Below are positions 3,734 to 17,269 of a stretch of DNA of 64,000 bases, in pieces. Location of the stretch: IMG/VR virus record IMGVR_UViG_3300032308_001297, positions 32,001 to 96,000 of that record. One strand, written 5' to 3'. Within the stretch, counting starts at the first letter, position 1. Every line of letters starts with the position of its first letter. The DNA comes from a virus. The notes beneath the pieces were generated by a model. That model was not told where the DNA came from. It saw only the letters and a program-made list of their open reading frames with translations, and ran no database searches. The position numbers and the translations under genes are program-made.

Positions 3734-3736
3734 ATA
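3729..3736 (+). promoter_or_regulatory. T4-type late promoter
   Basis: Exact TATAAATA 18 nt upstream of ATG 3755. Confidence 0.75.
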
Positions 3737-3754
3737 ATGCAAAAAGGAATCAGT

Positions 3755-4477
3755 ATGCATAACTTCTCAGAATTTATTGCCGAGTTAAAAATAACTCTAC
3801 AGTGCCACGACGAACTCAATCCTAAACTCTGGGATGGCGAGAAACTAAAGCCAGAAGTTCGTAAGGCTCTAATTAAATTCGGAGAAACTTGGGCTGAGTT
3901 CGCAAAGATTCCCAAGAGTATGATTGAAGATATCGTAATGACAGGCGGTAATACTAATTTTAATTATACTTCTAAATCAGATATCGACGTTCATCTTATC
4001 GTAGATCGATCTAAACTTTTTAGTGACGCAAAATTCGTCGAAGAATATCTACAAGATAAAAAGTCTTTATGGACTTTATCACACGATGTTAATGTATATG
4101 GTTATCCTCTAGAACCATACGCCCAAGACAAGAGCATTAAGTATCCAAAAGATCAGGGCGTTTATTCTCTTAAAAACGATGAATGGTTAAAGAAACCTGG
4201 TAAGTGCGAATATGACTATCAGGGAGACAATCTTCTAAAGCAGAAGGTTAAGCATTATATGCATGCTATTGATCATCTAATAAAACATAAGATGGGTGAA
4301 GGTGCAGTTAATCTTTTAAAAACAAAACTAAAAAACATGCGAGCCGCTGGTATCCAGCAATATGGAGAATATTCCAGAGAGAACCTAGTATTCAAAGAGC
4401 TCCGTAACAGAGGCTATCTTGATAAAATGAATGCATACGACAAAGGTGTGCAAGATCAAGAGCTCTCTCTTAAATAA
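3755..4477 (+). CDS. Pol-beta superfamily nucleotidyltransferase with N-terminal capsid-targeting-like sequence
   Basis: MTGGNTNFNYTSKSDIDVH (hG[GS]-x-DxD); start at 3755 (AAGGA SD) gives MHNFSEFIAE. Confidence 0.75.
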   Translation: MHNFSEFIAELKITLQCHDELNPKLWDGEKLKPEVRKALIKFGETWAEFAKIPKSMIEDIVMTGGNTNFNYTSKSDIDVHLIVDRSKLFSDAKFVEEYLQDKKSLWTLSHDVNVYGYPLEPYAQDKSIKYPKDQGVYSLKNDEWLKKPGKCEYDYQGDNLLKQKVKHYMHAIDHLIKHKMGEGAVNLLKTKLKNMRAAGIQQYGEYSRENLVFKELRNRGYLDKMNAYDKGVQDQELSLK

Positions 4478-4480
4478 ATA

Positions 4481-4509
4481 TTGCTTTTCTACTAAAAATA
4501 AGTTATAAT
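4481..4509 (+). promoter_or_regulatory. sigma70-type promoter
   Basis: TTGCTT-17 bp-TATAAT in an intergenic gap. Confidence 0.65.
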
Positions 4510-4534
4510 GTTCTTGACTTAAATGGAGGTTATT

Positions 4535-4654
4535 ATGCATATGAGCAGCGAATTAGAATATATGGTTGAGACAGATATGCTTCTGCTAGGTTATAATCCT
4601 TATAACCCTGCAGATGTTAATAAGTATTGGGAGATTTATTTCTATGGCTATTGA
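4535..4654 (+). CDS. 39-aa hypothetical protein
   Basis: GGAGG SD; MHMSSELEYMVETDMLLLGYNPYNPADVNKYWEIYFYGY*. Confidence 0.55.
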   Translation: MHMSSELEYMVETDMLLLGYNPYNPADVNKYWEIYFYGY

Positions 4655-4919
4655 GATTTATTCGAAGAACAATTGCTCTTTTTGCGAACAAGCAAAACAA
4701 ATCTTACGCACACACGGAAAAGATTATATCGAGTATAAGCTCGACGAAGATTTCACACGCGAGATCCTTCTATCAAAGTTTCCAGAAGCTAAGACGTTTC
4801 CTGTGATTGTTCTCGACGGTTTCAATATCGGTGGGTTTGAACAATTGAAGCGCCATCTCACAGAAGAGACTTCAGACCCTAGAAAGATTCTATTGGAAGA
4901 TAATTACTACGGAGCATAA
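4644..4919 (+). CDS. Glutaredoxin (NrdC-like)
   Basis: CSFC active site, TFPVI, IGGF; start moved to ATG 4644. Confidence 0.85.
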   Translation: MAIEIYSKNNCSFCEQAKQILRTHGKDYIEYKLDEDFTREILLSKFPEAKTFPVIVLDGFNIGGFEQLKRHLTEETSDPRKILLEDNYYGA

Positions 4920-4922
4920 ATT

Positions 4923-5204
4923 ATGGCTACTTATGATCGCGACACTCTGATGAAAGATTTGCAGAAAAATGTTGTTGCAGTTTATTTCACAAAAGTTAAT
5001 GGCGAAAAACGAGAGATGCGTTGCACTCTCATGCCAGGTTTGCTTCCTCCAACATATGTCCAAGAAGAAGCAGATGTAAAGAAATTCCATGATGAGAACA
5101 GAGAAGTTCTTGCTGTGTGGGATGTGATGAAGGGTGGATGGCGTTCGTTTCGCATCGACTCTATAGAGTATGTTCAGGTCTTAGATCCGTATCAATACTT
5201 TTAA
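4923..5204 (+). CDS. SH3-like/WYL_2 (DUF2693-like) conserved T4-like protein
   Basis: FTKVNGEKREMRCTL and GWRSFRIDS motifs. Confidence 0.7.
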   Translation: MATYDRDTLMKDLQKNVVAVYFTKVNGEKREMRCTLMPGLLPPTYVQEEADVKKFHDENREVLAVWDVMKGGWRSFRIDSIEYVQVLDPYQYF

Positions 5205-5214
5205 GGAGATGTAA

Positions 5215-5577
5215 ATGAACGAAAACGCTTACTGGGGTTATCACCTAATCGTTAATGCGGGAGGCTGCAACAAGGCTGCTATTACCGATCATGGAACGAT
5301 TTACGATTTCGCCAAGGAACTTGTAGAGAAAATAGAAATGGTGGCTTATGGAGAGCCACAGATTGTTTTCTTTGGAGAAGGTAATAAAGAAGGTTACACT
5401 CTTGTTCAATTAATAGAAACAAGTAACATTTGTGCGCATTTTGTTAACGAAACTGGTGATATGTACCTGGATGTTTTTTCGTGTAAAACATTCGATAAGG
5501 ATGTTGTCTTAAATCTTGTTGATGATTATTTCCTACCGTCAAGGGTAAATACTACATACCTCGAAAGACAAGCATAA
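5215..5577 (+). CDS. Pyruvoyl-dependent AdoMet decarboxylase (SpeD)-like protein
   Basis: GYHLI, GYTLVQLIETSNICAH, YLDVFSCK. Confidence 0.75.
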   Translation: MNENAYWGYHLIVNAGGCNKAAITDHGTIYDFAKELVEKIEMVAYGEPQIVFFGEGNKEGYTLVQLIETSNICAHFVNETGDMYLDVFSCKTFDKDVVLNLVDDYFLPSRVNTTYLERQA

Positions 5578-5592
5578 CAACTGGAGTTTGTA

Positions 5593-6423
5593 ATGAATAT
5601 TATTTGGTCTGATTTTGATGCCGATTCAGAATGGTCTGTGAAACAACGCGAAGCAAAACAAGTAAATGGTCCAGAATATTGGCCAACGATGCGGGAAGTG
5701 TTCAAGCATGATTGTGCTACGCTCCCGCTAAATCGTTTTCGTTTATGGGCTAGTATCCATAACGTTCCTCTTGTAACTCAATATCGCACTTCTCGTTTCT
5801 TTGGCGAAGCATTTTATCATGCTTATCGCGACTCAGAAATCTATGAGGCTCTAGTAGAAAATTGGATTGGTATACCAGAAGCAATGGCTGGTGCACTTCG
5901 TCCAACTAATGATTTTGATACTTCAACACAGCGTATTCAGAACCTTGGTCATCTTATGATTACTGGGTTTGGTAAAGAGAAGCTACGTTCAATCAAGTCA
6001 ATTGTTGAGATTGGTGCTGGATATGGTGATATGTGTTCGCTTATCCACGATCTTGGATTCCAAGGCGAATATACTATCGTTGACATTCCAGAGACTCAGC
6101 CAGTTCAAGAGTTCTATCTTGGCAAGCAGGGCATCACGCCTAAGTGGTCATTTGAAGATGATAATGTAACACATGCTGATCTAGTTATTGCTACATGGTC
6201 ATTGTCTGAGACTCCACTCGAATATCGTGCGCAGCTGATGCCAAAGATTGATCAGTCAAAGAACTGGTTAATCATGGCGCAGTCTGAAGTTTTTGGTCAG
6301 AAAGTCAATGACGAATACTTCACTAACTTCTTCAAGGATAAGAACCTAACAAAGATTCCTCTTGGTTCTGAAGATATGAAGCAGTGGGATGGAGACAATA
6401 ATTATTATGTTGTGAGGGATTAA
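5593..6423 (+). CDS. Putative sugar O-methyltransferase (class I SAM)
   Basis: IVEIGAGYG, YTIVDIPE, DLVIATWSLSE motifs. Confidence 0.7.
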   Translation: MNIIWSDFDADSEWSVKQREAKQVNGPEYWPTMREVFKHDCATLPLNRFRLWASIHNVPLVTQYRTSRFFGEAFYHAYRDSEIYEALVENWIGIPEAMAGALRPTNDFDTSTQRIQNLGHLMITGFGKEKLRSIKSIVEIGAGYGDMCSLIHDLGFQGEYTIVDIPETQPVQEFYLGKQGITPKWSFEDDNVTHADLVIATWSLSETPLEYRAQLMPKIDQSKNWLIMAQSEVFGQKVNDEYFTNFFKDKNLTKIPLGSEDMKQWDGDNNYYVVRD

Positions 6424-6932
6424 TGCTTAATAATGGTTCAACGCCATCAACTGATATGTATTATGGATGTACCGAAAAAAATGTTTGGCGTCCGGGTAGC
6501 GGTATTACATTCGGCACCTTTGATCTATTACATTCTGGTCATATTACTATGCTTGAGCAGTGTAGAAGTCAGTGCGATTATTTAATTGTTGGGTTACAAT
6601 CTGACCCAACAATCGATCGTCCTGATACTAAGAACCGTCCAGTTCAGTCTCTTTTTGAAAGATATGCGCAGTTATCTTCTAGCCGCTTTGTCGACCAAAT
6701 TATTCCCTATGATACAGAAGAGGACTTGGCAAATATGCTAAGTATCCTGGATGTTAAAAAGAGATTCCTTGGCGAAGAATATAATGGCCAGTTTATCTAT
6801 GCTGGTGATGTTTGCAAGCTAAGAAATATTGAATTAGTTTACATCGAACGCAAACACAATTATTCATCATCAAATCTAAGGACCAGAGTATATGCTAGAG
6901 AGTTGTCAAAACGCACCAATAATCCATCTTGA
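6423..6932 (+). CDS. Cytidylyltransferase family (TagD/HldE-II-like) nucleotidyltransferase
   Basis: GTFDLLHSGH (HxGH), LIVGL, RKHNYSSSNLR. Confidence 0.85.
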   Translation: MLNNGSTPSTDMYYGCTEKNVWRPGSGITFGTFDLLHSGHITMLEQCRSQCDYLIVGLQSDPTIDRPDTKNRPVQSLFERYAQLSSSRFVDQIIPYDTEEDLANMLSILDVKKRFLGEEYNGQFIYAGDVCKLRNIELVYIERKHNYSSSNLRTRVYARELSKRTNNPS

Positions 6933-7446
6933 ATATTTTGCACAGCAAGCACAAAATCTTGAAGGTCTAATATTAGAATTTGGTGTAGCCAAAGGCAGAA
7001 CAATCACAAAGATCGCTCAAACATTACCAGAAAGAACGGTATATGGATTTGATTGGTTTCAAGGGTTGCCAGAAGATTGGGCAAATGGATATATGGCTGG
7101 GCATTTTGCTTGCGATAAACCAACAGATCTACCAGAGAACGTAGTAATCGTAGAAGGATTATTCAAGAAAACAGTTCCAGGATTTATTAAAGAACATAAA
7201 GATGAGAAGGTTGCTTTCATGCATGTTGATTGCGACATCTATTCATCCGCCAAATATGTTCTTGATAAGTTCGAAAAGAAATTCCAAGATGGTTCAATTG
7301 TTGTCTTTGATGAGTTTATCATATATAATAATTATCAACATCATGAATGGAAAGCATGGCATGAGTTCTTAGAAAAAACTAAGTATAATTACGAAGTGCT
7401 CGGAAGAGCTCACCAAGAAAGTGTAGCATTTAGAATTTACAAGTGA
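6892..7446 (+). CDS. TylF/MycF-like O-methyltransferase
   Basis: LEFGVAKG, YGFDWFQGLPEDW, HVDCDIYSS, VFDE. Confidence 0.8.
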   Translation: MLESCQNAPIIHLEYFAQQAQNLEGLILEFGVAKGRTITKIAQTLPERTVYGFDWFQGLPEDWANGYMAGHFACDKPTDLPENVVIVEGLFKKTVPGFIKEHKDEKVAFMHVDCDIYSSAKYVLDKFEKKFQDGSIVVFDEFIIYNNYQHHEWKAWHEFLEKTKYNYEVLGRAHQESVAFRIYK

Positions 7447-7453
7447 GGATATT

Positions 7454-8038
7454 ATGTCATTTACTGATCAGTATTTTAATGAAGTAGTAGATATTGCCAA
7501 TGAAATCGATAAAAACAAAATTGAGATCATGGCTCGTGGTCTTGCAGACATCACTGCACATGCTGGGCGTGTGTTTGTGCTTGGCGTGGGTGGTAGCGCT
7601 GGTAACGCTTCCCATATGGTTAATGATCTTCGAAAGCTATGTGGGATCGAAGCATACTGCCCCACAGACAACGTTCCAGAACTTACAGCTAGAACGAACG
7701 ACGAAGGGTTTGACACCGTTTTCGAAGGATATCTCAGAGTAAGTAATCTAAACAAGTATGATTGTATCTTTATTCTATCAGTTGGTGGTGGTAATAAAGA
7801 AAAGAATGTATCAGTTGGGCTAGTAAAGGCAATTGATTATGCGAATTATGTTGGCGCTCATGTTTACGGTATTGTCGGCAAGGCAGATGGATACACTGCT
7901 GAAAAAGGGAATTGTGTGGTGGTTATTCCTCAGCTGGCTCCAGACAGAGTCACACCACACTCAGAAGCATTCCAAGGAACAGTCTGGCATTGTTTAGTTT
8001 CTAATCCTGTTTTGCAGAAAAATAAAACAAAATGGTAA
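7454..8038 (+). CDS. gmhA: Sedoheptulose-7-phosphate isomerase (SIS domain)
   Basis: GVGGSAGNASH, LTARTNDEG, SVGGG, PHSE. Confidence 0.8.
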   Translation: MSFTDQYFNEVVDIANEIDKNKIEIMARGLADITAHAGRVFVLGVGGSAGNASHMVNDLRKLCGIEAYCPTDNVPELTARTNDEGFDTVFEGYLRVSNLNKYDCIFILSVGGGNKEKNVSVGLVKAIDYANYVGAHVYGIVGKADGYTAEKGNCVVVIPQLAPDRVTPHSEAFQGTVWHCLVSNPVLQKNKTKW

Positions 8039-8574
8039 AGGCAGTATTCATTGATCGTGATGGTACGATCAACAAACTTATCCATGGCAGAGAACAAGAA
8101 AAACATGTGTGCCCTTGGTTGTATTCAGAGTTCGAATATATTGCTGGAGCTCATGAAGCTGTTGCTAAATTTAAAAGTTTAGGTTATACTACACATCTAG
8201 TAACAAATCAACCTGACGTTGATGATGGTTATACAACCGAAGAAACTATGAACGCTATCCATGACACTATCAAGAAAGATTTAAAACTTGATACTATCAA
8301 CGTAGCAAGAACACGTAACACACCCGAATACAAACCAAACTCAGGTATGATAGATAGTATAGTTGAAAAATGGGTTGTGACCAGAGAACGTAGTTGGATG
8401 ATTGGTGATACATGGCGTGATGTTGTTGCTGGTCATCGTGCTGGTTTAATCACTATATATATTGGTATTACATATAGAGCACCAAAAGAATATCCTAATA
8501 TTTTTCCTGATTATTGTGCAGTAGATCTACTTGAGGCGAGTAAGATCATAGAACAAAACGAGGCTGGAAGATGA
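8032..8574 (+). CDS. gmhB: D,D-heptose bisphosphate phosphatase (HAD IIIA)
   Basis: FIDRDGTIN, VTNQPD, KPNSGM, MIGDTWRD. Confidence 0.85.
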   Translation: MVKAVFIDRDGTINKLIHGREQEKHVCPWLYSEFEYIAGAHEAVAKFKSLGYTTHLVTNQPDVDDGYTTEETMNAIHDTIKKDLKLDTINVARTRNTPEYKPNSGMIDSIVEKWVVTRERSWMIGDTWRDVVAGHRAGLITIYIGITYRAPKEYPNIFPDYCAVDLLEASKIIEQNEAGR

Positions 8575-9311
8575 ACATTGAGATTTATGCTGATGGAGCA
8601 GATTATAAAGGTATTATTGAATCTGCAAAAAATGAAAAAATTACTGGTTTTACTACTAATCCAACACTAATGAAGCAAGCTGGTATTAGCGACTATGAAG
8701 GGTTTGCTAGGAGAATCATTACTGATCTAAAAACAATGCGTCCAGGCACAAATATTTCTCTAGAAGTATTTGCTGATGATGTAGAAGGAATGTATGCTCA
8801 GGCAAAGAAGATCGCTGCTTGGGGCAAAAAAGCAGAATATGATGTTTACGTTAAGATTCCAATTACTAACACTCATGGCGAGTCAAACGCTGGTCTAGTT
8901 AGACTTCTAAACGAAGAAGGTGTTAAGGTAAATGTTACTGCTGTGTTTACTCCAGAGCAGACAAAGGGCATTCTAGAAAACATTAATACGAATACACCAA
9001 TTATTATTTCTATTTTTGCTGGTCGTATTGCTGACACTCTAAGAGATCCGGTTCGTTCTACAATAGATTGCGTCAATCAGACATGGAATTTTGAACCAAA
9101 GAATATGGAAAACGTAAAGTTCCTTTGGGCTTCATGTCGTGAACAGTATCATTTGATCATGGCTGAACAAGCTGGTTGTCACATTATTACAATGCTTCAC
9201 GATCAAATCAAGAAGCTACATCTAACTGACAAAAACCTTGAAGAGTTTTCTAGAGAAACTGTTCAGATGTTTTATAACGATGCTACTGCATCAGGATTTA
9301 GGATTGACTAA
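8571..9311 (+). CDS. tal: Transaldolase (short type)
   Basis: GFTTNPTLM, VYVKIP, VNVTAVF, ISIFAGRIAD, LWASCR. Confidence 0.9.
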   Translation: MNIEIYADGADYKGIIESAKNEKITGFTTNPTLMKQAGISDYEGFARRIITDLKTMRPGTNISLEVFADDVEGMYAQAKKIAAWGKKAEYDVYVKIPITNTHGESNAGLVRLLNEEGVKVNVTAVFTPEQTKGILENINTNTPIIISIFAGRIADTLRDPVRSTIDCVNQTWNFEPKNMENVKFLWASCREQYHLIMAEQAGCHIITMLHDQIKKLHLTDKNLEEFSRETVQMFYNDATASGFRID

Positions 9312-10315
9312 TGAAGGGTTTTGAAGAGAACGAAATTTCCGAGAAGGCTAACGGCGGAACTGAGATCGCCAAGCGCAAACTAGCAGAGATTCTTCCTGAT
9401 GAATTGCTAGAAAATTTTCAAATTATTTGTTCACGCCCACGTGATTTAGATGGAAGTAAGATTCGTTTGTTCTGGTGTCATGATCTACCAGAAGATCCAG
9501 AGTCTGCTAAGTTTCGTGATGTAAAATGGCGTAACAAGTTTCATAAGTTTATCTTTATTTCTAACTGGCAGTATCAACGCTATCAGTTAGTTCATGGTCT
9601 ACCTTATGACCAAAAATCAATTATTCTAGAATCAGGTATTATTCCTGCTCCGGAAAGTTGTTTTGATAAGCCAGACGATAAGATTCGTTTAGTTTATACA
9701 TCAACCCCGCAGCGTGGTCTTGATATTCTTGTTCATGTATTTAAGGAACTAGCAAAAGACAATCCAGATATTCATCTTGATGTGTTTTCTTCTTTTAAGA
9801 TCTATGGTTGGGACGACGCTGATAAACAGTTTGAACATTTGTATGATGAAATTCGTAATCATCCACAAATGACCTATCATGGATTCGTTCCGAATGATCA
9901 ACTCAAAGAACATCTTAACAAGTCTCATATCTTTGCTTACCCCTCTGTTTGGACAGAAACATCCTGCAGGGCCATGCTCGAAGCTATGTCCGCTGGTTTG
10001 GTATGTGTTCATCCTAATCTTGGCGCTCTGCCGGAATCTTCCGGTGGTTTGAACGTTATGTTCCATGGTGATCTTAACGATATCAATAATCATGCAGCTG
10101 CATTTGCTGGTAATCTAAACGCTGCTATTGATTTCGTAAGAACAAAGAACCATGATAAGATGATCCGCTTCAATAAGATATTTGTTGACAGCAGATATAA
10201 TATCGATTATGTTAAGAATCGTTGGCAAGCAACTCTAGAAAAGTTACTTACAATATATCCTGACGATGAATCTCGTTGGTTTCCAAAGGAAATGTTTACA
10301 TATAAGGTAGAATAA
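9311..10315 (+). CDS. GT-B (GT4-like) glycosyltransferase
   Basis: GGTE, YTSTPQRGL, YPSVWTETSCRAMLEAMSAG (E-x7-E). Confidence 0.85.
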   Translation: MKGFEENEISEKANGGTEIAKRKLAEILPDELLENFQIICSRPRDLDGSKIRLFWCHDLPEDPESAKFRDVKWRNKFHKFIFISNWQYQRYQLVHGLPYDQKSIILESGIIPAPESCFDKPDDKIRLVYTSTPQRGLDILVHVFKELAKDNPDIHLDVFSSFKIYGWDDADKQFEHLYDEIRNHPQMTYHGFVPNDQLKEHLNKSHIFAYPSVWTETSCRAMLEAMSAGLVCVHPNLGALPESSGGLNVMFHGDLNDINNHAAAFAGNLNAAIDFVRTKNHDKMIRFNKIFVDSRYNIDYVKNRWQATLEKLLTIYPDDESRWFPKEMFTYKVE

Positions 10316-10317
10316 TT

Positions 10318-11310
10318 ATGATTCTTACAAGAACTCCACTGCGTGTTTCATTCTTTAGTGGGGGAAGTGACATGCCATCCTTCTACGAACAGGAGGATGG
10401 CGCTGCTCTTTCTGTAACTATTGATAAATTCATTTATGTAATTGCACACAAAGTTCCACATATGGGTGTGCGTTGTATGTATGATGACGTCGAAGAACAG
10501 CACGACATTGAACAAATGCAGCATGCTATTACTCGTGAAACCTTAAAGTATTATGGTTATACAAAGGAGATCACAGTTGCATCTATTTCAGATATTATTA
10601 CTAAGGGTTCTGGGCTCGGTTCTTCTTCTGCTTTTACTGTGGGTTTGGTAAAAGCAGTATCTTGTTCCAAGTATGATAACAGTACACGTAGATATGTTGC
10701 TGATATTGCATGCGAAATAGAAATGAACAAGTGCGGATATCCTGTTGGTAAGCAAGATCAATACGCTGCAGCATGGGGAGGAATGAATTTATTTAAATTT
10801 AAGAAAAATGGGGAAGTAACAGTAGACGAATTACGTTTAACTAATCCTCACGTCCAAGCTCTTGAGAAAAATCTAATGCTTGTTTATTCTGGGCGTTCTA
10901 GAAATGCTAATAATATTCTCCAGAAACAACAGAAAGCCATGTTAGACATAGACAAATTTAACAAAGTTAAACGTTCTAAAGATAAGGCGTTCGAAGCAGT
11001 AGATCTTCTACACAAAGGTAAGATCGACGATTTCGGTAAACTATTACACGAATCTTGGCTCGACAAGAAAGGTGTCTGTGAAGAAATTACGCAAGACTAT
11101 TTCGACGAAATCTATGAAACAGCTATAAAGGCTGGAGCTCTTGGTGGTAAACTACTAGGTGCTGGTGGTGGTGGTTTCTTTATCTTCTACGTGCCGGAAA
11201 AGTATAGAACTTCTGTAGAGGGTGCAATCTCTACAAACCATACTGATTGTAGGATCTATGATTTTCAGTTTTATGGATCTGGATCTCACATTGTTTATCA
11301 TACTGGATAA
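10318..11310 (+). CDS. GHMP kinase, D-glycero-D-manno-heptose-7-phosphate kinase (HddA-like)
   Basis: TPLRVSFFSGGSD, GSGLGSSS, GKQDQYAAA, GGKLLGAGGGGF. Confidence 0.85.
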   Translation: MILTRTPLRVSFFSGGSDMPSFYEQEDGAALSVTIDKFIYVIAHKVPHMGVRCMYDDVEEQHDIEQMQHAITRETLKYYGYTKEITVASISDIITKGSGLGSSSAFTVGLVKAVSCSKYDNSTRRYVADIACEIEMNKCGYPVGKQDQYAAAWGGMNLFKFKKNGEVTVDELRLTNPHVQALEKNLMLVYSGRSRNANNILQKQQKAMLDIDKFNKVKRSKDKAFEAVDLLHKGKIDDFGKLLHESWLDKKGVCEEITQDYFDEIYETAIKAGALGGKLLGAGGGGFFIFYVPEKYRTSVEGAISTNHTDCRIYDFQFYGSGSHIVYHTG

Positions 11311-11316
11311 ATAATA

Positions 11317-11345
11317 TTGACTTTTTGATAACAATAAGGTATTAT
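11317..11345 (+). promoter_or_regulatory. sigma70-type promoter
   Basis: TTGACT-17 bp-TATTAT(AAT). Confidence 0.55.
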
Positions 11346-11741
11346 AATTTGTCAGTAAGTAATAACGTTATCTCTTTTCCTAGACCTAACTCTAGAATAA
11401 ACTTAGCAGCACAAACTGTAGAGAATATTCAGAACAATCTAGATATGATGAAACATTATCATATTCAAGAGACTATCTTAGCAATGGCTCCTATACTTTT
11501 CAACCAGTTAGATCTTGCTGGTTTTGGTATGATGGATGATGAAGATGAAGATGTCAGAGATGGCGCATTTATTGTAGAAGCATTACGAGCTATAATGTGT
11601 AAGCACTATGGTATCTATCATCCTTTTAATACTCTTATCGAAAACATTTTTGAAGAAGAGCTTACAGAGAATGGTGCTTACAAAGTAGTAGATAGAATAG
11701 AATTAGATCTAACAGAACCGGAAGAAACCGAAAACGAATAG
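11325..11741 (+). CDS. Hypothetical protein (start uncertain)
   Basis: ORF with SNNVISFP N-terminal motif and acidic tail. Confidence 0.6.
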   Translation: MITIRYYNLSVSNNVISFPRPNSRINLAAQTVENIQNNLDMMKHYHIQETILAMAPILFNQLDLAGFGMMDDEDEDVRDGAFIVEALRAIMCKHYGIYHPFNTLIENIFEEELTENGAYKVVDRIELDLTEPEETENE

Positions 11742-11748
11742 GTGATTT

Positions 11749-12606
11749 GTGATTATTGTTGACTTGAATCAAGTTATGTTATCTAATCTTCTTATGCAAC
11801 TTGGTAATCATACCAACGCCCAGGTAGAAGAAAATATGGTTCGCCATATGATTTTAAACTCCCTCCGATCTTATAAAGTAAAGTTTGGTGAAGACTATGG
11901 CGAGATGATTATCGCTTGTGATAATACAAATTACTGGCGTAAACAGCGTTTTCCTTATTATAAGGCTAATCGCAAAAAGAATATTGAGTCCTCAGAACTT
12001 AACTGGAAAAATATCTTCGAGTGCATGAATAAGATTCGTGCAGAACTAAAAGAATACTTCCCTTATAGGGTTATAGATGTCGAGTCTGCAGAGGCTGATG
12101 ATGTAATCGCCACACTAGTTTCTAAATTCGGCTCTGAACTAAATACTGGCGAAAAGATTCTTATTCTTTCTGGCGACAAGGATTTCATACAGCTGCATAC
12201 ATATGCTAATGTTGAGCAATATGATCCGACCCGTAAGAAATGGATAAAACATGACGATCCAGAGAGATTCTTACACGAACATATCCTTAAAGGAGATGCT
12301 GGGGATGGAGTTCCTAATGTTCTTTCTCCTGATAATGTTTTTGTTGTAGGCGATAGACAAAGACCTTTGACAGCTAAGAAACTAGAAAAGATTATGGGCA
12401 CAGAGTTAGAAGAAATGGATACAACTCTTGCTCGAAATTATTCTCGTAATGCATACTTGATTGATTTGAGTTTCACCCCGAATGTTATTCGAGAGAAAGT
12501 TATGGAACAATATATCGCTCAAGAAAATCGTGATCGCAGTAAACTACTAAATTACTTTATCGCAAATAAACTCAAGAATCTAACCGAACATTTGAGTGAG
12601 TTCTAA
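11749..12606 (+). CDS. rnh: T4 RNase H (5'-3' exonuclease/flap nuclease)
   Basis: IIVDLNQ, YWRK..FPYYKANRK, EADDVIA, SGDKDFIQL, GDAGDGVPN. Confidence 0.92.
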   Translation: MIIVDLNQVMLSNLLMQLGNHTNAQVEENMVRHMILNSLRSYKVKFGEDYGEMIIACDNTNYWRKQRFPYYKANRKKNIESSELNWKNIFECMNKIRAELKEYFPYRVIDVESAEADDVIATLVSKFGSELNTGEKILILSGDKDFIQLHTYANVEQYDPTRKKWIKHDDPERFLHEHILKGDAGDGVPNVLSPDNVFVVGDRQRPLTAKKLEKIMGTELEEMDTTLARNYSRNAYLIDLSFTPNVIREKVMEQYIAQENRDRSKLLNYFIANKLKNLTEHLSEF

Positions 12607-12616
12607 GGAGAAATTA

Positions 12617-13036
12617 ATGGCTGTCCTCGGCATGTATGAATTTTTACATCGTGTATCCAAACTTAAAAAGACACAAGAAAAAGTTGACAATTTAAAAGCT
12701 AATGACACATTCGCACTAAGAGCGATTCTTCAGGCAGCTTTTGACCCATCAATTAAGTTCCTTCTTCCAGAAGGCGAGCCTCCATATAAACCAACAGAAG
12801 TAGTTGATCAACAGCATGTTCTTCATAGAGAAGCTGAGAAACTACGATACTTTGTAGAAGGTTTCTATCCGGATCTTAATCAGAATAAGCGAGAGATGAT
12901 GTTCATTGAACTACTTGAACGTGTAGATCCTCTCGATGCAAAACTTCTAGTCGCAATTAAAGACAAGAAGATGCCATTTCCAGGCATTACAGTTGGACAT
13001 GTTAAAGAAGCACTACCAGGATTGATTGTAGAATGA
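12617..13036 (+). CDS. Conserved T4-like hypothetical protein
   Basis: LPEGEPPYK, KREMMFIELLE; AGGAG SD before ATG 12617; typical position after rnh. Confidence 0.7.
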   Translation: MAVLGMYEFLHRVSKLKKTQEKVDNLKANDTFALRAILQAAFDPSIKFLLPEGEPPYKPTEVVDQQHVLHREAEKLRYFVEGFYPDLNQNKREMMFIELLERVDPLDAKLLVAIKDKKMPFPGITVGHVKEALPGLIVE

Positions 13037-13233
13037 GCAAATCAGCTATTAAGAAATTTAAAAAGAACGATTATTCGGATCGCGACGAGTTTCATGATGA
13101 TCCTCGTGAACGTGAACAGAAGCGTAACGCAAAGCGTGTAGAACGTGCGTTACGTACAAAAGACATTTCAGCTTTCGTTGAAGATGAAGATCAATATAAT
13201 GACGATCTTATCGATAATAATTGGAAATACTGA
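13033..13233 (+). CDS. Hypothetical protein
   Basis: 66-aa ORF coupled to both neighbours. Confidence 0.6.
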   Translation: MSKSAIKKFKKNDYSDRDEFHDDPREREQKRNAKRVERALRTKDISAFVEDEDQYNDDLIDNNWKY

Positions 13234-13475
13234 TGCCAACGTATCGATTTTTAAATAATGAAACTGGCGAAGAGTATGAAAACTTCATGTCGATATCGGA
13301 ACTTGATGCATACTTGCAAGAAAATCCGAAAATCACTCAACTCGTAAACGGCGCTCCTATGATCCATTCTGGCAGAGGTATGGGTAAACCTGATCAGGGT
13401 TTCCGTGATCTGTTAAAACATATGAAGAAGGGAAACAATAAAGGTATAACAAGGAGCACCATAAACACATTCTAG
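13233..13475 (+). CDS. FmdB-like small protein (lacks Cys)
   Basis: MPTYRF..TGE N-terminus, KPDQGFRDLL; usual neighbour of phage phoH. Confidence 0.65.
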   Translation: MPTYRFLNNETGEEYENFMSISELDAYLQENPKITQLVNGAPMIHSGRGMGKPDQGFRDLLKHMKKGNNKGITRSTINTF

Positions 13476-13485
13476 TAGGGGTATA

Positions 13486-14244
13486 ATGCAAGAAGAATCA
13501 ACAAAAAGATTAACCCGTAGAGAAAAAAGATTACTTCGACAACAAGGAAAAGAACCAAAGGAAAATTATCAAGAGAAAATAAATTTTCATCTTAAACATT
13601 TTCATCCTCTAACAGACAATCAAAGATTGGCATTCAATTCTTTTGAGGATGATAAAAATTTGATGCTTCATGGTATTGCCGGAACAGGTAAATCCTTTAT
13701 GGCGTTATACCTTTCTTTGAAGCAAATCCTTAGTGATCCTGAATGTGTTTATAAGAAAGTTGTTATCGTAAGATCAGTGGTCCCAACGAGAGACATGGGA
13801 TTTCTTCCTGGCAGCGATAAAGAAAAAACTAAAGTATATGAAGCGCCTTACTATGCGATCTGCACTGAATTGTTTGGTAGAGGCGATTCGTACGAGTATA
13901 TGAAAAAGAGAAACGTAATTGAATTTATTTCTACTTCTTTTATTAGAGGCATTACACTTAACGATTGTATCGTTATCGTGGATGAAATGCAAAACGCTAC
14001 TCTTCATGAGCTTGACTCTGTTATTACTCGTATTGGCCACAACTGCAAAGTAGTATTCTGTGGCGACTTTAGACAGTCAGATTTTACAAGAGATCACGAA
14101 CGTAGTGGATTAACAGATTTCATGCGTGTTGTTAAAAACATGAAATCGTTTGATCTTATTGAGTTCGAAGCAAAAGATATTGTAAGATCTTCTCTGGTTA
14201 AAGAATATATTATTCTCAAAGATAAAATGAGAATCATAACATAG
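13486..14244 (+). CDS. phoH: PhoH-like ATPase
   Basis: GIAGTGKS, GFLPG, FIRGITL, VDEMQN, TRIG, CGDFRQSD, DIVRS. Confidence 0.92.
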   Translation: MQEESTKRLTRREKRLLRQQGKEPKENYQEKINFHLKHFHPLTDNQRLAFNSFEDDKNLMLHGIAGTGKSFMALYLSLKQILSDPECVYKKVVIVRSVVPTRDMGFLPGSDKEKTKVYEAPYYAICTELFGRGDSYEYMKKRNVIEFISTSFIRGITLNDCIVIVDEMQNATLHELDSVITRIGHNCKVVFCGDFRQSDFTRDHERSGLTDFMRVVKNMKSFDLIEFEAKDIVRSSLVKEYIILKDKMRIIT

Positions 14245-14252
14245 GAGGAATT

Positions 14253-14996
14253 GTGTCAAAAGATAAAAAGAAAAGATATCGTTCAATCTTTATATCTGAT
14301 GTGCACCTTGGAACCCGTCACTCTAACGCAGAAAAGCTATTAGAATTTCTTAAATCCACTGAAGCTGATAGGTATTATCTTATCGGTGATATTATAGATG
14401 GTTGGATGATGAGAAAGAAAGTTTATTGGCCACAAGAGCACAACAATGTGGTTCAATTCTTTTTGAAACAATCTAAAAAAGATATTAAAGTTATTTACAT
14501 AACAGGAAACCATGATGAATTCCTCAGAGAATACTCAGGAACTGTCATGGGTAACATTCAGATAGTAGATAATATTATACACACTGGTGTTGATGGTAAA
14601 AGATATCTTGTTATTCATGGAGATCAGTTTGATCTTGTAACAATGAATGCTAAATGGCTTGCTATGATTGGTGGTTGGTTATATGATAGAATGATTGATT
14701 TTAATAGACATCTACAATCTATATACAATATACTGGGAATTAATGGATTTTCTCTTTCTGCTTGGGCAAAATCTAGCGTAAAAGAAGCAGTAAACTTTAT
14801 CGGCGATTACGAAAAAGTAGTTGCTGATGCTGCCAAAAGGAGATGCGTCGATGGGGTGGTTTGCGGCCATATTCATCATGCTAATATATGTTCTTTTGAT
14901 AATATTGAATACATGAACTGTGGCGATTGGGTAGAATCATGCACTGCAATCGTAGAATACGACAATGGAAAGTTTGAGATTATAAGGAAACTATAA
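14253..14996 (+). CDS. plcP: PlcP-like (LpxH2-type) metallophosphoesterase/phospholipase C
   Basis: ISDVHLG, GDIIDGW, WPQEHN, GNHDEFLR, HGDQFD, CGHIH, NCGDWVESCTA. Confidence 0.8.
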   Translation: MSKDKKKRYRSIFISDVHLGTRHSNAEKLLEFLKSTEADRYYLIGDIIDGWMMRKKVYWPQEHNNVVQFFLKQSKKDIKVIYITGNHDEFLREYSGTVMGNIQIVDNIIHTGVDGKRYLVIHGDQFDLVTMNAKWLAMIGGWLYDRMIDFNRHLQSIYNILGINGFSLSAWAKSSVKEAVNFIGDYEKVVADAAKRRCVDGVVCGHIHHANICSFDNIEYMNCGDWVESCTAIVEYDNGKFEIIRKL

Positions 14997-15985
14997 TGAA
15001 TATTACTATTTTTACTGATGCGTGGGATCCGCAAATCAATGGTGTTGTTACAACATTAAAAACAACTGTCAAACATCTTGAGTCCCGTGGACATGAAGTT
15101 AAAGTAATTCATCCTGGTCTTTATAAATTGACTATTCCATTACAACCATCAACTGGCATTTTCATGCCAGTTTTGCCTATGGGTATTGCTGACGAAGAAG
15201 TAAAGAATGCTGACAAGATTCACATCGCAACAGAAGGAGCAATAGGTCTTGCCGCTAGATATAGCTGTAAAAAGTACAAGAAGTCTTTTACAACTTCCTT
15301 TCACACAAAATATCCGGAATACGTTAAGATACATACTGGTATTTCACCAAGAGTTAGCGGTGAGTATTTTCGTTGGTTCCATAGAGACAGCAGTGCTGTT
15401 ATGGTTACAACCCCCAGTATGGTTGATTACTGTAAGGAGTTGGATATCAAACATCTGAAAATTTGGTCTCGTGGAGTGGATACAAATCTATTCCATCCAA
15501 TGTATCCGAAACCAAAGGGTGAATTTATTTCTGCTGTTTATTGTGGTAGAATATCTGCAGAAAAGAATCTCGAAGCATTTCTTTCTATTGATAATCCAAC
15601 GATCACCAAAACTCTTATTGGCGATGGACCGCAATTAGAAGAATACAAAGCAAAATATCCAGATGCTATATTCCTTGGTAAAATGGATGCTAAAAGAATT
15701 GCTGCAGAGTTACCTAAACATGATGTGTTTGCTTGGCCTTCGCTAACAGATACATTTGGACTTGTTGTGTTGGAAGGAATGGCTTGTGGACTACCTGTTG
15801 CTGCATTCGATAACGAAGTTAATCGTTACATTATTGAAGACTCTGTTTCTGGTTTCTTAGTAAAAGAACATTTAGAATTAGCTATTGAAGATGCTATACA
15901 TTTAAAACCAGAAGATGCAGTAGCAAGAGCAGCTAAGTTCTCTTGGGAAGCAGCAACCGATCAATTCTTGGAGAATATAGCATGA
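14996..15985 (+). CDS. GT4 glycosyltransferase, Agt-like glycosyl-diacylglycerol synthase
   Basis: TDAWDPQINGVVTTL, HIATEGAIG, FHTKYPEY, WSRGVD, GRISAEKN, TDTFGLVVLEGMACG; coupled to the plcP-like gene. Confidence 0.75.
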   Translation: MNITIFTDAWDPQINGVVTTLKTTVKHLESRGHEVKVIHPGLYKLTIPLQPSTGIFMPVLPMGIADEEVKNADKIHIATEGAIGLAARYSCKKYKKSFTTSFHTKYPEYVKIHTGISPRVSGEYFRWFHRDSSAVMVTTPSMVDYCKELDIKHLKIWSRGVDTNLFHPMYPKPKGEFISAVYCGRISAEKNLEAFLSIDNPTITKTLIGDGPQLEEYKAKYPDAIFLGKMDAKRIAAELPKHDVFAWPSLTDTFGLVVLEGMACGLPVAAFDNEVNRYIIEDSVSGFLVKEHLELAIEDAIHLKPEDAVARAAKFSWEAATDQFLENIA

Positions 15986-16635
15986 CAGGAAGAACATTCT
16001 TCGTTCTTGACTATTGGCCAAAACCAGAGTATGGTAAGATTTATAACTTTCATTATGTAACAGTAGATGGATCAATGCCAGATCTACAAGTAAAGTTTGT
16101 TCTTTCTGATGATAGAAAAGATATTCTTTATGTCGACTACGACGCCGAAGGTAAGTGGGTTGATACTTGGTATATGAGATACATTCCAGGTCAAGGATTA
16201 ATGGAATGGAGAGACGACTATCCTACAGGCGGATGGTTTACTAAACGTAAAAAGATTGTTATGAATCCTGGCATTGGCTGGGGAGAGACCGGAACAATTG
16301 GTAGCTTCTATCAGAACTTTCCTAAGATGGATCCATTATCTTCTAATCCTCCGCAGTTTATGTCTGGAACTCAAACTGTTATTTGGGAGTCATGGTTACC
16401 AGAAATGATCCTCAGCAACGGGGATAAGTATACTGATATTGTAACAATGGTCTACCAGCAGTCTTGGGGAAAGAAAACTTCTGGCGCTCGTTATTATATG
16501 GCGAAAGGAATTGGTCCTATCGCAGTTCAGTGGATTGCTCCTCATCCATTCAAACCAGGACAGTTTGTCACTACGGCTAGAATGGATGCGAAATATACGG
16601 TGACTTATGGCACGCAGAAAGATATTCAAACATAA
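15982..16635 (+). CDS. Hypothetical aromatic-rich protein
   Basis: GGAG SD, ATG 15982; Trp/Tyr-rich beta pattern, YYMAKGIGP motif. Confidence 0.65.
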   Translation: MTGRTFFVLDYWPKPEYGKIYNFHYVTVDGSMPDLQVKFVLSDDRKDILYVDYDAEGKWVDTWYMRYIPGQGLMEWRDDYPTGGWFTKRKKIVMNPGIGWGETGTIGSFYQNFPKMDPLSSNPPQFMSGTQTVIWESWLPEMILSNGDKYTDIVTMVYQQSWGKKTSGARYYMAKGIGPIAVQWIAPHPFKPGQFVTTARMDAKYTVTYGTQKDIQT

Positions 16636-17269
16636 TCTAGTTCCAGAAGTAGAGATTACTACTGAAACAATTGACGGTAAAAGACACTATGTGTTACCGA
16701 GTGGAGAAAAATTTCGCTCGGTAACAACTGTATTGTCAGACGCTTTAGATAAAACAGCACTACTAGAGTGGAGAAAGAAAGTTGGTGAGGAAGAAGCTCA
16801 AAAGATTTCTACACAAGCTGCTCGTCGTGGAACCGCCGTACATTCCATCGCAGAGCGTTATGTGCTCAATGAAGAGGAATATCTTCGGGATTCTATGCCT
16901 TCTGGAATTGATTCTTTTAAAAGCATTCAAACGCTTTTAGATAAACATGTAGATAACATTCTTGGTATTGAGTTACCTTTGTATTCTACTGTTTTAAAAA
17001 CAGCAGGAAGATGCGATCTTATTGCAGAGTTTGATGGCGTTCCTTCTATAATTGATTTTAAAACAAGTCGCAGATTAAAAGAGGAAAGCTGGATTGAGTC
17101 CTACTTCCTACAAACAACTGTCTATTCTATGATGTTTGAGTATATGTATAAAATAGAAATTCCCCAGATCGCAATACTAATAGCAGTGGATCATGAAGAG
17201 CCACAACTATTTGTAAAGGATCGTGGAGAATATGTTAATAGAGTTATAGAGATCTTTACTGCCAGCTAA
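16607..17269 (+). CDS. PD-(D/E)xK exonuclease
   Basis: SVTTVL, RGTAVH, AGRCDLI, IIDFKTS, YFLQ. Confidence 0.85.
   Translation: MARRKIFKHNLVPEVEITTETIDGKRHYVLPSGEKFRSVTTVLSDALDKTALLEWRKKVGEEEAQKISTQAARRGTAVHSIAERYVLNEEEYLRDSMPSGIDSFKSIQTLLDKHVDNILGIELPLYSTVLKTAGRCDLIAEFDGVPSIIDFKTSRRLKEESWIESYFLQTTVYSMMFEYMYKIEIPQIAILIAVDHEEPQLFVKDRGEYVNRVIEIFTAS

Follow-up and report, generated by a model that had tools for sequence, protein, structure and literature searches.

Marine phages carry phosphate-stress genes (pstS, phoA, phoH), and cyanophages carry lipid desaturases. Lakes harbour the pmoC-phages, myoviruses with genomes of 159–527 kb and 32–44% GC whose hosts have been predicted from a PmoC similarity above 90% (Chen et al. 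2020, PMC7674155). In bacteria, membrane lipids are swapped by a pair of enzymes, the intracellular phospholipase C PlcP, which releases diacylglycerol (DAG), and the glycosyltransferase Agt, which places a sugar on it. The order plcP then agt corresponds to the layout that Sebastian et al. (PMC4796936) call "type 2"; it prevails in type II methanotrophs (PMC9239053) and is also known from P. aeruginosa (PA3219/PA3218; PMC8528852) and Burkholderia (BCAL2364/2365; PMC13691135). Deletion of plcP-agt in Methylosinus OB3b abolishes glucuronosyl-DAG, slows low-phosphate growth and methane oxidation and disturbs the packing of the intracytoplasmic membranes (PMC9239053). Here, we analyse a stretch of 64,000 nucleotides (the window), which covers bases 32001–96000 of the 162,364-bp IMG/VR record IMGVR_UViG_3300032308_001297 (completeness estimate 98%; genome G000 in our numbering). 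Directly after phoH, the window holds two genes that we compare with plcP and agt. Our analysis indicates that this uncultured T4-like lake phage probably has both bacterial lipid-swap enzymes encoded in its own genome and would use them to remodel the membranes of its host. The pair may also release phosphorus from these membranes.

The first of the two genes encodes a metallophosphoesterase (MPE) that is clearly set apart from LpxH. On the NCBIfam LpxH models NF003743 and TIGR01854, the MPE reaches 49–51 and 42.7 bits, where 134 and 190 are required. The true LpxH proteins of two Pseudomonas genomes and one Chromatiaceae genome score 295–334 bits, whereas a second paralog in each of these genomes scores 44–56 bits, and it is this second paralog that is 51–54% identical to the phage MPE. 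The same search of an Agrobacterium genome found only the PlcP-type protein. Solved LpxH proteins match the MPE by sequence at E values of 1e-6 or worse. Bacterial proteins match it at identities of 50–58%, and the range for PlcP-type homologs is 49–56%. Among stand-ins for characterised PlcPs, it is 52–53% for Agrobacterium (atu1649 type), 51–54% for the Pseudomonas homologs adjoining an agt1-like gene, 53% for Methylocystis and 44–49% for SAR11-like genomes, a term that we apply to G278 (1.16 Mb, 29.5% GC) and G035 (1.41 Mb) on their size and GC content alone. For comparison, characterised PlcPs are 46–51% identical to one another (PMC8528852, PMC9239053).

A maximum-likelihood tree (IQ-TREE) of 113 non-redundant rows, 29 of them viral, was calculated with LpxH as the outgroup as in PMC9239053. 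The four LpxH rows, from E. coli K-12, two Pseudomonas and one Chromatiaceae, split from all others at 100% in the Shimodaira–Hasegawa-like approximate likelihood ratio test (SH-aLRT). All 29 viral rows fall on the PlcP side, which also holds proteins of Pseudomonas, Agrobacterium, Rhizobium, Mesorhizobium, Methylocystis and SAR11-like genomes, and the window MPE belongs to a viral clade of 17 rows on this side. A Hyphomicrobiales donor, hinted at by the best identities, finds no support in this tree, in which the viral rows form a basal grade when rooted on LpxH.

The residues of the active site follow the same division. The calcineurin-like metal site (DxH, GD, GNH, H, GHxH) is complete in the MPE, with the ligands D16, H18, D46, N86, H122, H206 and H208 as well as H87. 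These positions are invariant in our alignment A1 and are kept in 108–109 of the 109 PlcP-side rows. The MPE has H87 where the LpxH motif GNRD has an Arg; this His is found in 109/109 PlcP-side rows and the Arg in 4/4 LpxH rows. All nine columns that are diagnostic for PlcP versus LpxH are PlcP-like in the window protein. These features show the predicted product to be an LpxH-like metallophosphoesterase of the PlcP type whose metal site is complete. The initial annotation had already proposed a PlcP-type rather than an LpxH enzyme, and the hidden Markov model (HMM) scores, the paralog contrast, the tree and the diagnostic columns agree on this point; in neither the phylogeny nor the HMM searches does the MPE group with LpxH. 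Its argument that GNHD typifies PlcP cannot be upheld. GNH(D/E) is a general metallophosphoesterase motif, and GNHD therefore excludes LpxH without identifying PlcP.

Alphafold modelling of the MPE (predicted local distance difference test score, pLDDT, 79) yielded a calcineurin-like core with a helical insertion at approximately residues 123–196. The top Foldseek matches of this model are LpxH–lipid X complexes, with an E value of 6e-11, template modelling (TM) scores of 0.55–0.62 and sequence identities of 17–20%. As far as a predicted fold can show, the MPE is thus a lipid-phosphodiester enzyme of the LpxH superfamily, and the fold alone cannot part PlcP from LpxH. The fold search is blind to this distinction because no PlcP structure has been solved.

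The second gene encodes a GT4 glycosyltransferase, for which GTcp, the Agt of SAR11 (HTCC7211), provides a mutational reference. GTcp has a catalytic dyad of His104 and Asp256, in which Glu is no substitute for Asp, the UDP-sugar motifs GRVAxEKN and FPSxTDTFG, and the further essential residues Gly16, Gly82, Gly85, Arg190, Lys195, Thr257, Phe258, Gly259 and Glu264; mutants in its DAG-binding residues Arg163 and Trp320 are inactive (PMC8231724). The window GT4 was aligned with its Agrobacterium homolog and with the proteins whose genes follow plcP in SAR11-like, Methylocystis, Bradyrhizobium and Pseudomonas genomes. At the positions essential in GTcp, the window GT4 has G16, G81, G84, H103, R159, R185, K190, D252-T253-F254-G255, E260 and W317. 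These include the catalytic dyad, formed by H103 and by D252 of the DTFG motif, and the counterparts of the DAG-binding Arg163 and Trp320, namely R159 (in WSRGVD) and W317, both of which are conserved. The UDP-sugar motifs read GRISAEKN (184–191) and WPSLTDTFG (247–255), and the glycine-rich motifs are NGVV with G16 and EGAIG with G81 and G84. The catalytic Asp, which stands where GT4 enzymes usually have Glu, is found in 10/10 viral and 6/8 bacterial sequences aligned, with Glu in the second paralogs of Pseudomonas. In the SAR11-like genome G035, the residue numbering of Agt differs from that of GTcp.

The window GT4 shares 36–42% identity with the product of the gene that follows plcP in bacteria, with 36–37% in SAR11-like and Pseudomonas genomes. 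Its top NCBIfam match is alpha-monoglucosyl-DAG synthase, far under the cut-off, and solved GT4 structures are matched only remotely, at E values of 4e-8 or worse. Just one strong homolog (37%, E 1e-61) was found in the A. tumefaciens genome, 604 kb away from the PlcP homolog. This position fits atu2297, since atu1649 (PlcP homolog) and atu2297 (Agt) lie apart in Agrobacterium (PMC3972451). Because the sole non-Agt outgroup of the GT4 tree has a branch length of 10 changes per site, neither rooting nor a donor can be read from this tree. Sugar use varies within the clade, with GTcp accepting glucose, galactose and glucuronic acid and Pseudomonas Agt1 glucose only (PMC8231724, PMC8528852), and the sugar specificity of the phage enzyme is not readable from sequence. 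All mutationally essential residues of GTcp are kept, which bears out the earlier assignment of the GT4 to the Agt type and shows it, at the level of primary structure, to be an Agt/GTcp-type protein with a full set of catalytic, UDP-sugar and DAG-binding residues.

The arrangement of the two genes is likewise that of the bacterial system. In the window, the predicted lipid-synthesis gene lies directly downstream of the plcP-like gene and overlaps its stop codon. The MPE gene is followed by an adjacent GT4 gene in 55 of 63 MPE-bearing viral contigs and in 51 of 80 bacterial loci, and the two are also adjacent in the two SAR11-like, streamlined, low-GC alphaproteobacterial genomes. The proposal that the pair mirrors bacterial plcP-agt is hence well founded, the viral order being the same as the bacterial operon layout. 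MPE homologs occur in 109 of 301 sampled alphaproteobacterial genomes (one of them, G245, unpublished). Close coupling of MPE and GT4 is kept in at least five viral clades. In a separate observation, an alphaproteobacterial genome of 1.6 Mb and 30% GC carries plcP-agt twice, the copies lying on opposite strands and separated by about 7 kb (locus L162; G214:C1:136800-153000).

A collection of isolated phages (50,697 records) yielded MPE homologs only in Pelagibacter phage Mosig (43%) and Synechococcus phage S-SRM01 (36%), and no close Agt homolog, the best match reaching 29%. Both MPEs, of Mosig EXVC030M (MT647606, QOI69083) and of S-SRM01 (QPX48289), are annotated as LpxH, fall on the PlcP side of the tree and have no adjoining agt-like gene. 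Phages with the MPE alone are Mosig, S-SRM01 and the sources of loci L050–L052 and L064. Metagenomic relatives of the Mosig protein (L061–L063) carry the MPE and agt pair. In Mosig itself (locus L001:3897-5732, MT647606 93031–94866), the PlcP-like gene, named "putative UDP-2,3-diacylglucosamine hydrolase", is divergent from an adjoining phosphate ATP-binding cassette (ABC) transporter gene (pstS-like) and lacks an agt partner.

The initial annotation described a three-gene cassette of phoH, plcP and agt. A comparison of 80 viral loci, fetched by the exonuclease gene downstream, does not support this view. The backbone rnh-orfA-orfB-phoH-(orf4)-exo is conserved in 80/80 related loci, whether these hold the pair or not. 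What comes after phoH in 72 of them is exo itself (gap of –7 to 11 nt), orf4 or a different insert, and only eight carry a 2.4-kb plcP-agt insert. Other phage groups carry the pair with neither phoH nor exo nearby. Since few phoH loci have the pair and other phages carry it without phoH, the functional unit is the two-gene pair, placed in a variable site of the backbone, and phoH belongs to the backbone. The locus comparison shows, as read from gene order, that the pair is accessory and inserted into a phage backbone that is itself conserved. The junction between phoH and exo (window 14244–16607; loci L175–L254) is variable as such, with gap classes of –7 to 11, and about 360–380 nt, a class of about 620–740 nt in which most loci hold orf4, one gap of 2215 nt filled by a different insert of unknown nature (L223), and a class of 2363–2429 nt with plcP-agt and orf4.

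The ratio of nonsynonymous to synonymous substitution rates (dN/dS) against five relatives is 0.05–0.18 for both genes of the pair, which shows purifying selection, and the GC content at third codon positions (GC3) of the pair, 0.25–0.27, equals that of phoH and exo. With backbone-like GC3 and low dN/dS, the pair is no recent pick-up. The identities of MPE and GT4 to window 14253–15985 are discordant in some relatives (84/93% in L007, 87/69% in L006 and 81/89% in L020), which suggests recombination between or within the two genes.

The features of the locus are collected in Table 1. phoH, the MPE and the GT4 all lie on the + strand within a long co-oriented block of replication and nucleotide-metabolism genes. 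The stop codon TAG of phoH is followed by AGGAGG, four bases and the GTG of the MPE. The MPE contains the motifs SDVHLG (15–20), GDIIDGW (45–51), YWPQEHN (58–64), GNHD (85–88), HGD (122–124), GHIH (205–208) and GDWVESCTA (224–232), and the GT4 contains TDAWDPQINGVV (7–18), HIATEG (76–81), FHTKYPEY (102–109) and DTFGLVVLE (252–260). Thus the three genes lie where the initial annotation placed them, every motif that it quoted is present in the translations, and the translational coupling of MPE and GT4 that it proposed can be read directly from the TAATG overlap. The phoH–MPE and MPE–GT4 junctions are both spanned by contigs of four further runs, drawn from three studies and labelled metagenome, freshwater or lake-water metagenome, and the gene order is identical in eight related viral contigs; the arrangement is therefore no assembly artefact. 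At the 3' side of the insert, orf4, for which Pfam, NCBIfam and PHROG gave no hit, shares 43 nt with the 3' end of agt. Its position is fixed, and its identity among relatives ranges from 25 to 83%. A hairpin with a 15-bp stem at window 16692–16726, inside the exonuclease gene, is terminator-like with a weak T tail.

Table 1. Features of the phoH–exo region of the window.
Feature	Position in window	Strand	Basis
phoH, PhoH-like ATPase, 252 aa	13486-14244	+	PF02562 E 3e-45; phrog_170 E 3e-86; in 80/80 related loci
Ribosome-binding site AGGAGG and spacer before the GTG start of the plcP-like gene	14243-14252	+	Direct sequence reading
plcP-like metallophosphoesterase (MPE), 247 aa, GTG start; predicted DAG-releasing intracellular phospholipase C	14253-14996	+	Metallophos PF00149 E 4.6e-12
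TAATG stop/start overlap coupling translation of the plcP-like and agt-like genes	14994-14998	+	Direct sequence reading
agt-like GT4, 329 aa; predicted UDP-sugar:diacylglycerol glycosyltransferase	14996-15985	+	Glyco_trans_1_4, Glycos_transf_1, Glyco_transf_4, E 1e-17 to 1e-18
orf4, 230 aa, backbone gene 3' of the insert	15943-16635	+	Between phoH and exo in many relatives without the pair
PD-(D/E)XK exonuclease (exo), backbone gene closing the insertion site	16607-17269	+	phrog_298 E 3e-69

The phage genome, of 162 kb and 37% GC, is that of a myovirus with T4-like genes, whose tail sheath is 48–62% identical to those of Caulobacter phage Cr30, Sinorhizobium phages phiM12 and phiN3 and Stenotrophomonas phage DLP6. 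Outside the window, some 29 kb ahead of its first base, the genome encodes a stand-alone PmoC (G000:C1:2316-3035; locus L255:1501-2220). This protein scores 503 bits and is approximately 93% identical to the PmoC of Methylocystis sp. M, compared with 471 bits for Methylosinus, 351 for Methylococcus and about 220 for ammonia monooxygenases. The pmoC gene has a GC content of 0.45 versus 0.37 for the genome. Because the genome encodes a Methylocystis-like PmoC, the predicted host is probably a Methylocystis-like type II methanotroph. The pair and pmoC are no more than about 1 kb apart in 12 related contigs, which corresponds to 12 of the 63 viral loci (4-kb flanks). One contig (L009:896-8676, IMGVR_UViG_3300020558_000217) and 11 similar loci contain a host-like island of an acyl-CoA dehydrogenase gene, small open reading frames (ORFs), the plcP-like and agt-like genes, three further small ORFs, an AmoC/PmoC gene, hsp20 and an M15 peptidase gene, with about 0.9 kb between the lipid pair and pmoC.

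Taken together, the two enzymes are likely what they resemble, PlcP and Agt, and we consider it probable that the two genes after phoH constitute a virus-borne bacterial PlcP-Agt lipid-renovation operon that acts during infection. PlcP would cleave phosphatidylethanolamine, phosphatidylglycerol and phosphatidylcholine into DAG and a phospho-alcohol, and Agt would move glucose and/or glucuronic acid from a host UDP-sugar onto the DAG to form phosphorus-free glycolipids. In this way, membranes including those that hold the methane monooxygenase would stay intact while the phosphorus of the head groups becomes available. Host phosphatases would still be needed for the release of phosphate, after which the phosphorus could enter nucleotide synthesis (PMC3972451). 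In bacteria of the predicted host type, plcP-agt sustains the intracytoplasmic membranes and methane oxidation when phosphate is low. We infer that the pair is expressed together with the surrounding replication genes. Sigma-70-like sites near the genes show no excess (28 versus 28.9 in shuffles), and the late promoter TATAAATA has no match on the + strand at 3736–17269. Given the lack of a recognisable Pho box and the location in the replication block, the pair would run on the phage timetable and not on a host starvation signal.

Several observations weigh against this interpretation. Within the PlcP side, the viral rows diverge basally and outside the bacterial clades, where long-branch effects are possible, and their PlcP membership rests on orthologs and genus relatives of SMc00171, PA3219, PB7211_983 and MED193_17359. 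Phage MPEs are shorter than bacterial ones, with medians of 247 and 286 aa as called here. No Pho box (CTGTCATNNNNCTGTCAT-like, up to three mismatches) was found at 8279–16375, with counts not above those in shuffled sequences, and neither pstS (PF12849) nor UDP-glucose dehydrogenase (PF03721) was found in the phage genome; for lack of these three, nothing else in the genome ties the pair to phosphate stress. The Pho box is a regulatory feature of the bacterial copies and not of the PlcP enzyme. PlcP yields phospho-alcohols rather than phosphate (PMC3972451), and the activity of the viral copies is a prediction from sequence.

The assignment to phosphorus supply competes with a reading in which PlcP and Agt are active and the benefit is a changed envelope, through phage exclusion, receptor display or resistance to membrane stress. 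Bacterial lipid remodelling alters membrane proteomes and phage attachment (PMC9804370, PMC9938194), glycolipids shield Pseudomonas from polymyxin (PMC8528852), and no Pho box, pstS or phosphatase gene adjoins the pair in the window phage genome. However, the glycolipids made by PlcP and Agt are bulk bilayer lipids and not surface receptors, and the position of the PlcP-like gene of Mosig beside a phosphate ABC transporter gene speaks for a role in phosphorus economy; we regard an envelope function as unlikely. Descent from PlcP-Agt followed by drift to other substrates, with another lipid or a nucleotide-linked compound for the MPE and a non-DAG acceptor for the GT4, would accord with the long-branched, basal viral clades, the loss of the bacterial C-terminal tails, the low model confidence in the presumed lipid-binding cap region and the retention of the MPE alone in some phages (Mosig, S-SRM01, L050–L052, L064). 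Such drift is quite improbable in view of the purifying selection on both genes, their coupling in at least five viral clades and the retention of all catalytic and DAG-binding residues examined.

It is most improbable that the first gene encodes LpxH of lipid A synthesis and the second a glycosyltransferase of the lipopolysaccharide core or O-antigen, with which the phage would alter lipopolysaccharide. The homolog names in JGI and GenBank and the nearest solved fold speak for it, yet the MPE lies more than 80 bits under the LpxH cut-offs, has GNHD and not GNRD, stands opposite LpxH in the tree and resembles the second paralog of genomes that hold a true LpxH as well. Moreover, the GT4 has the Agt-specific Asp and the DAG-binding residues, and the predicted host belongs to the alphaproteobacteria, of which Agrobacterium has only the PlcP-type protein. 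Alphaproteobacteria generally use LpxI, not LpxH. The sequence data give good support to the pair as a genuine variant, carried by a virus, of an established bacterial system.

Full-text literature searches combining plcP with phage, virome or auxiliary metabolic gene (AMG) retrieved no paper describing a viral PlcP, in keeping with the remark in the initial annotation that no experimental description in phages was known. It had also foreseen that annotation pipelines would miscall the phosphoesterase, and databases indeed do so: JGI and GenBank name homologs of the MPE LpxH or UDP-2,3-diacylglucosamine hydrolase. Virome surveys of surface oligotrophic seawater and of Lake Baikal viral transcripts list "lpxH" as a lipopolysaccharide AMG (PMC10653327, PMC9611531). 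The "lpxH" filed under lipopolysaccharide synthesis in such surveys may be a misread plcP.

The combination with pmoC leads us to a tentative proposal. A lake methanotroph phage could possess two complementary host-derived gene sets, pmoC for the methane monooxygenase and plcP-agt, the latter turning the phospholipid store of the intracytoplasmic membranes into glycolipid, which would keep up methane-driven energy in phosphate-poor water and free phosphorus for genomes of about 160 kb. If true, this would be the first described virus-encoded renovation of phospholipid to glycolipid, viral "lpxH" counts in virome surveys would really represent plcP, and viruses would be tied to both methane oxidation and lake phosphorus cycling. 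Recycling of phosphorus locked in host membranes, with a back-fill of sugar lipids, would differ from the import of external phosphate (pstS, phoA). MPE genes are present in at least 63 viral contigs of several clades, including relatives of a SAR11 phage. Judging by the link to pmoC in this genome, methane oxidation in phosphate-limited lakes could be influenced by viruses that control the membranes of methanotrophs.

By its encoded PmoC, the window phage is a pmoC-phage, and it matches those described as a lake myovirus of 162 kb and 37% GC with a stand-alone pmoC more than 90% similar to that of Methylocystis, and hsp20 and acyl-CoA dehydrogenase genes lie near pmoC in its relatives. The main text of PMC7674155, by contrast, mentions no plcP, lpxH, phosphoesterase, glycosyltransferase or lipids, and a part of its family table contains no Metallophos or K03269 row, which is no proof of absence from the whole.

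Compared with LpxH, the phage MPE shares the calcineurin-like core with its inserted helical cap and the seven metal ligands, and its nearest solved structures are those of LpxH. It differs in its identity of only 17–20%, in GNHD instead of GNRD, in scores under the curated cut-offs and in its separate clade, and the PlcP type coexists with a true LpxH in gammaproteobacterial genomes. Phage phosphate-stress genes and cyanophage desaturases resemble the pair in being host-derived, in their occurrence in T4-like aquatic phages and in adjusting nutrients or membrane lipids during infection. Whereas those genes take up external phosphate or alter acyl chains, the pair would recycle membrane phosphorus and swap the head group. 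With the bacterial plcP-agt operon, the phage pair shares the two families, their order and the sets of catalytic residues, and the phage identities (49–56% for PlcP and 36–42% for Agt) lie within the range found among characterised members. The differences are a lytic-type, T4-like carrier, a locus in which no Pho box was found, TAATG coupling, proteins about 40 aa shorter, AT-rich codons and the lack of a dagK partner.

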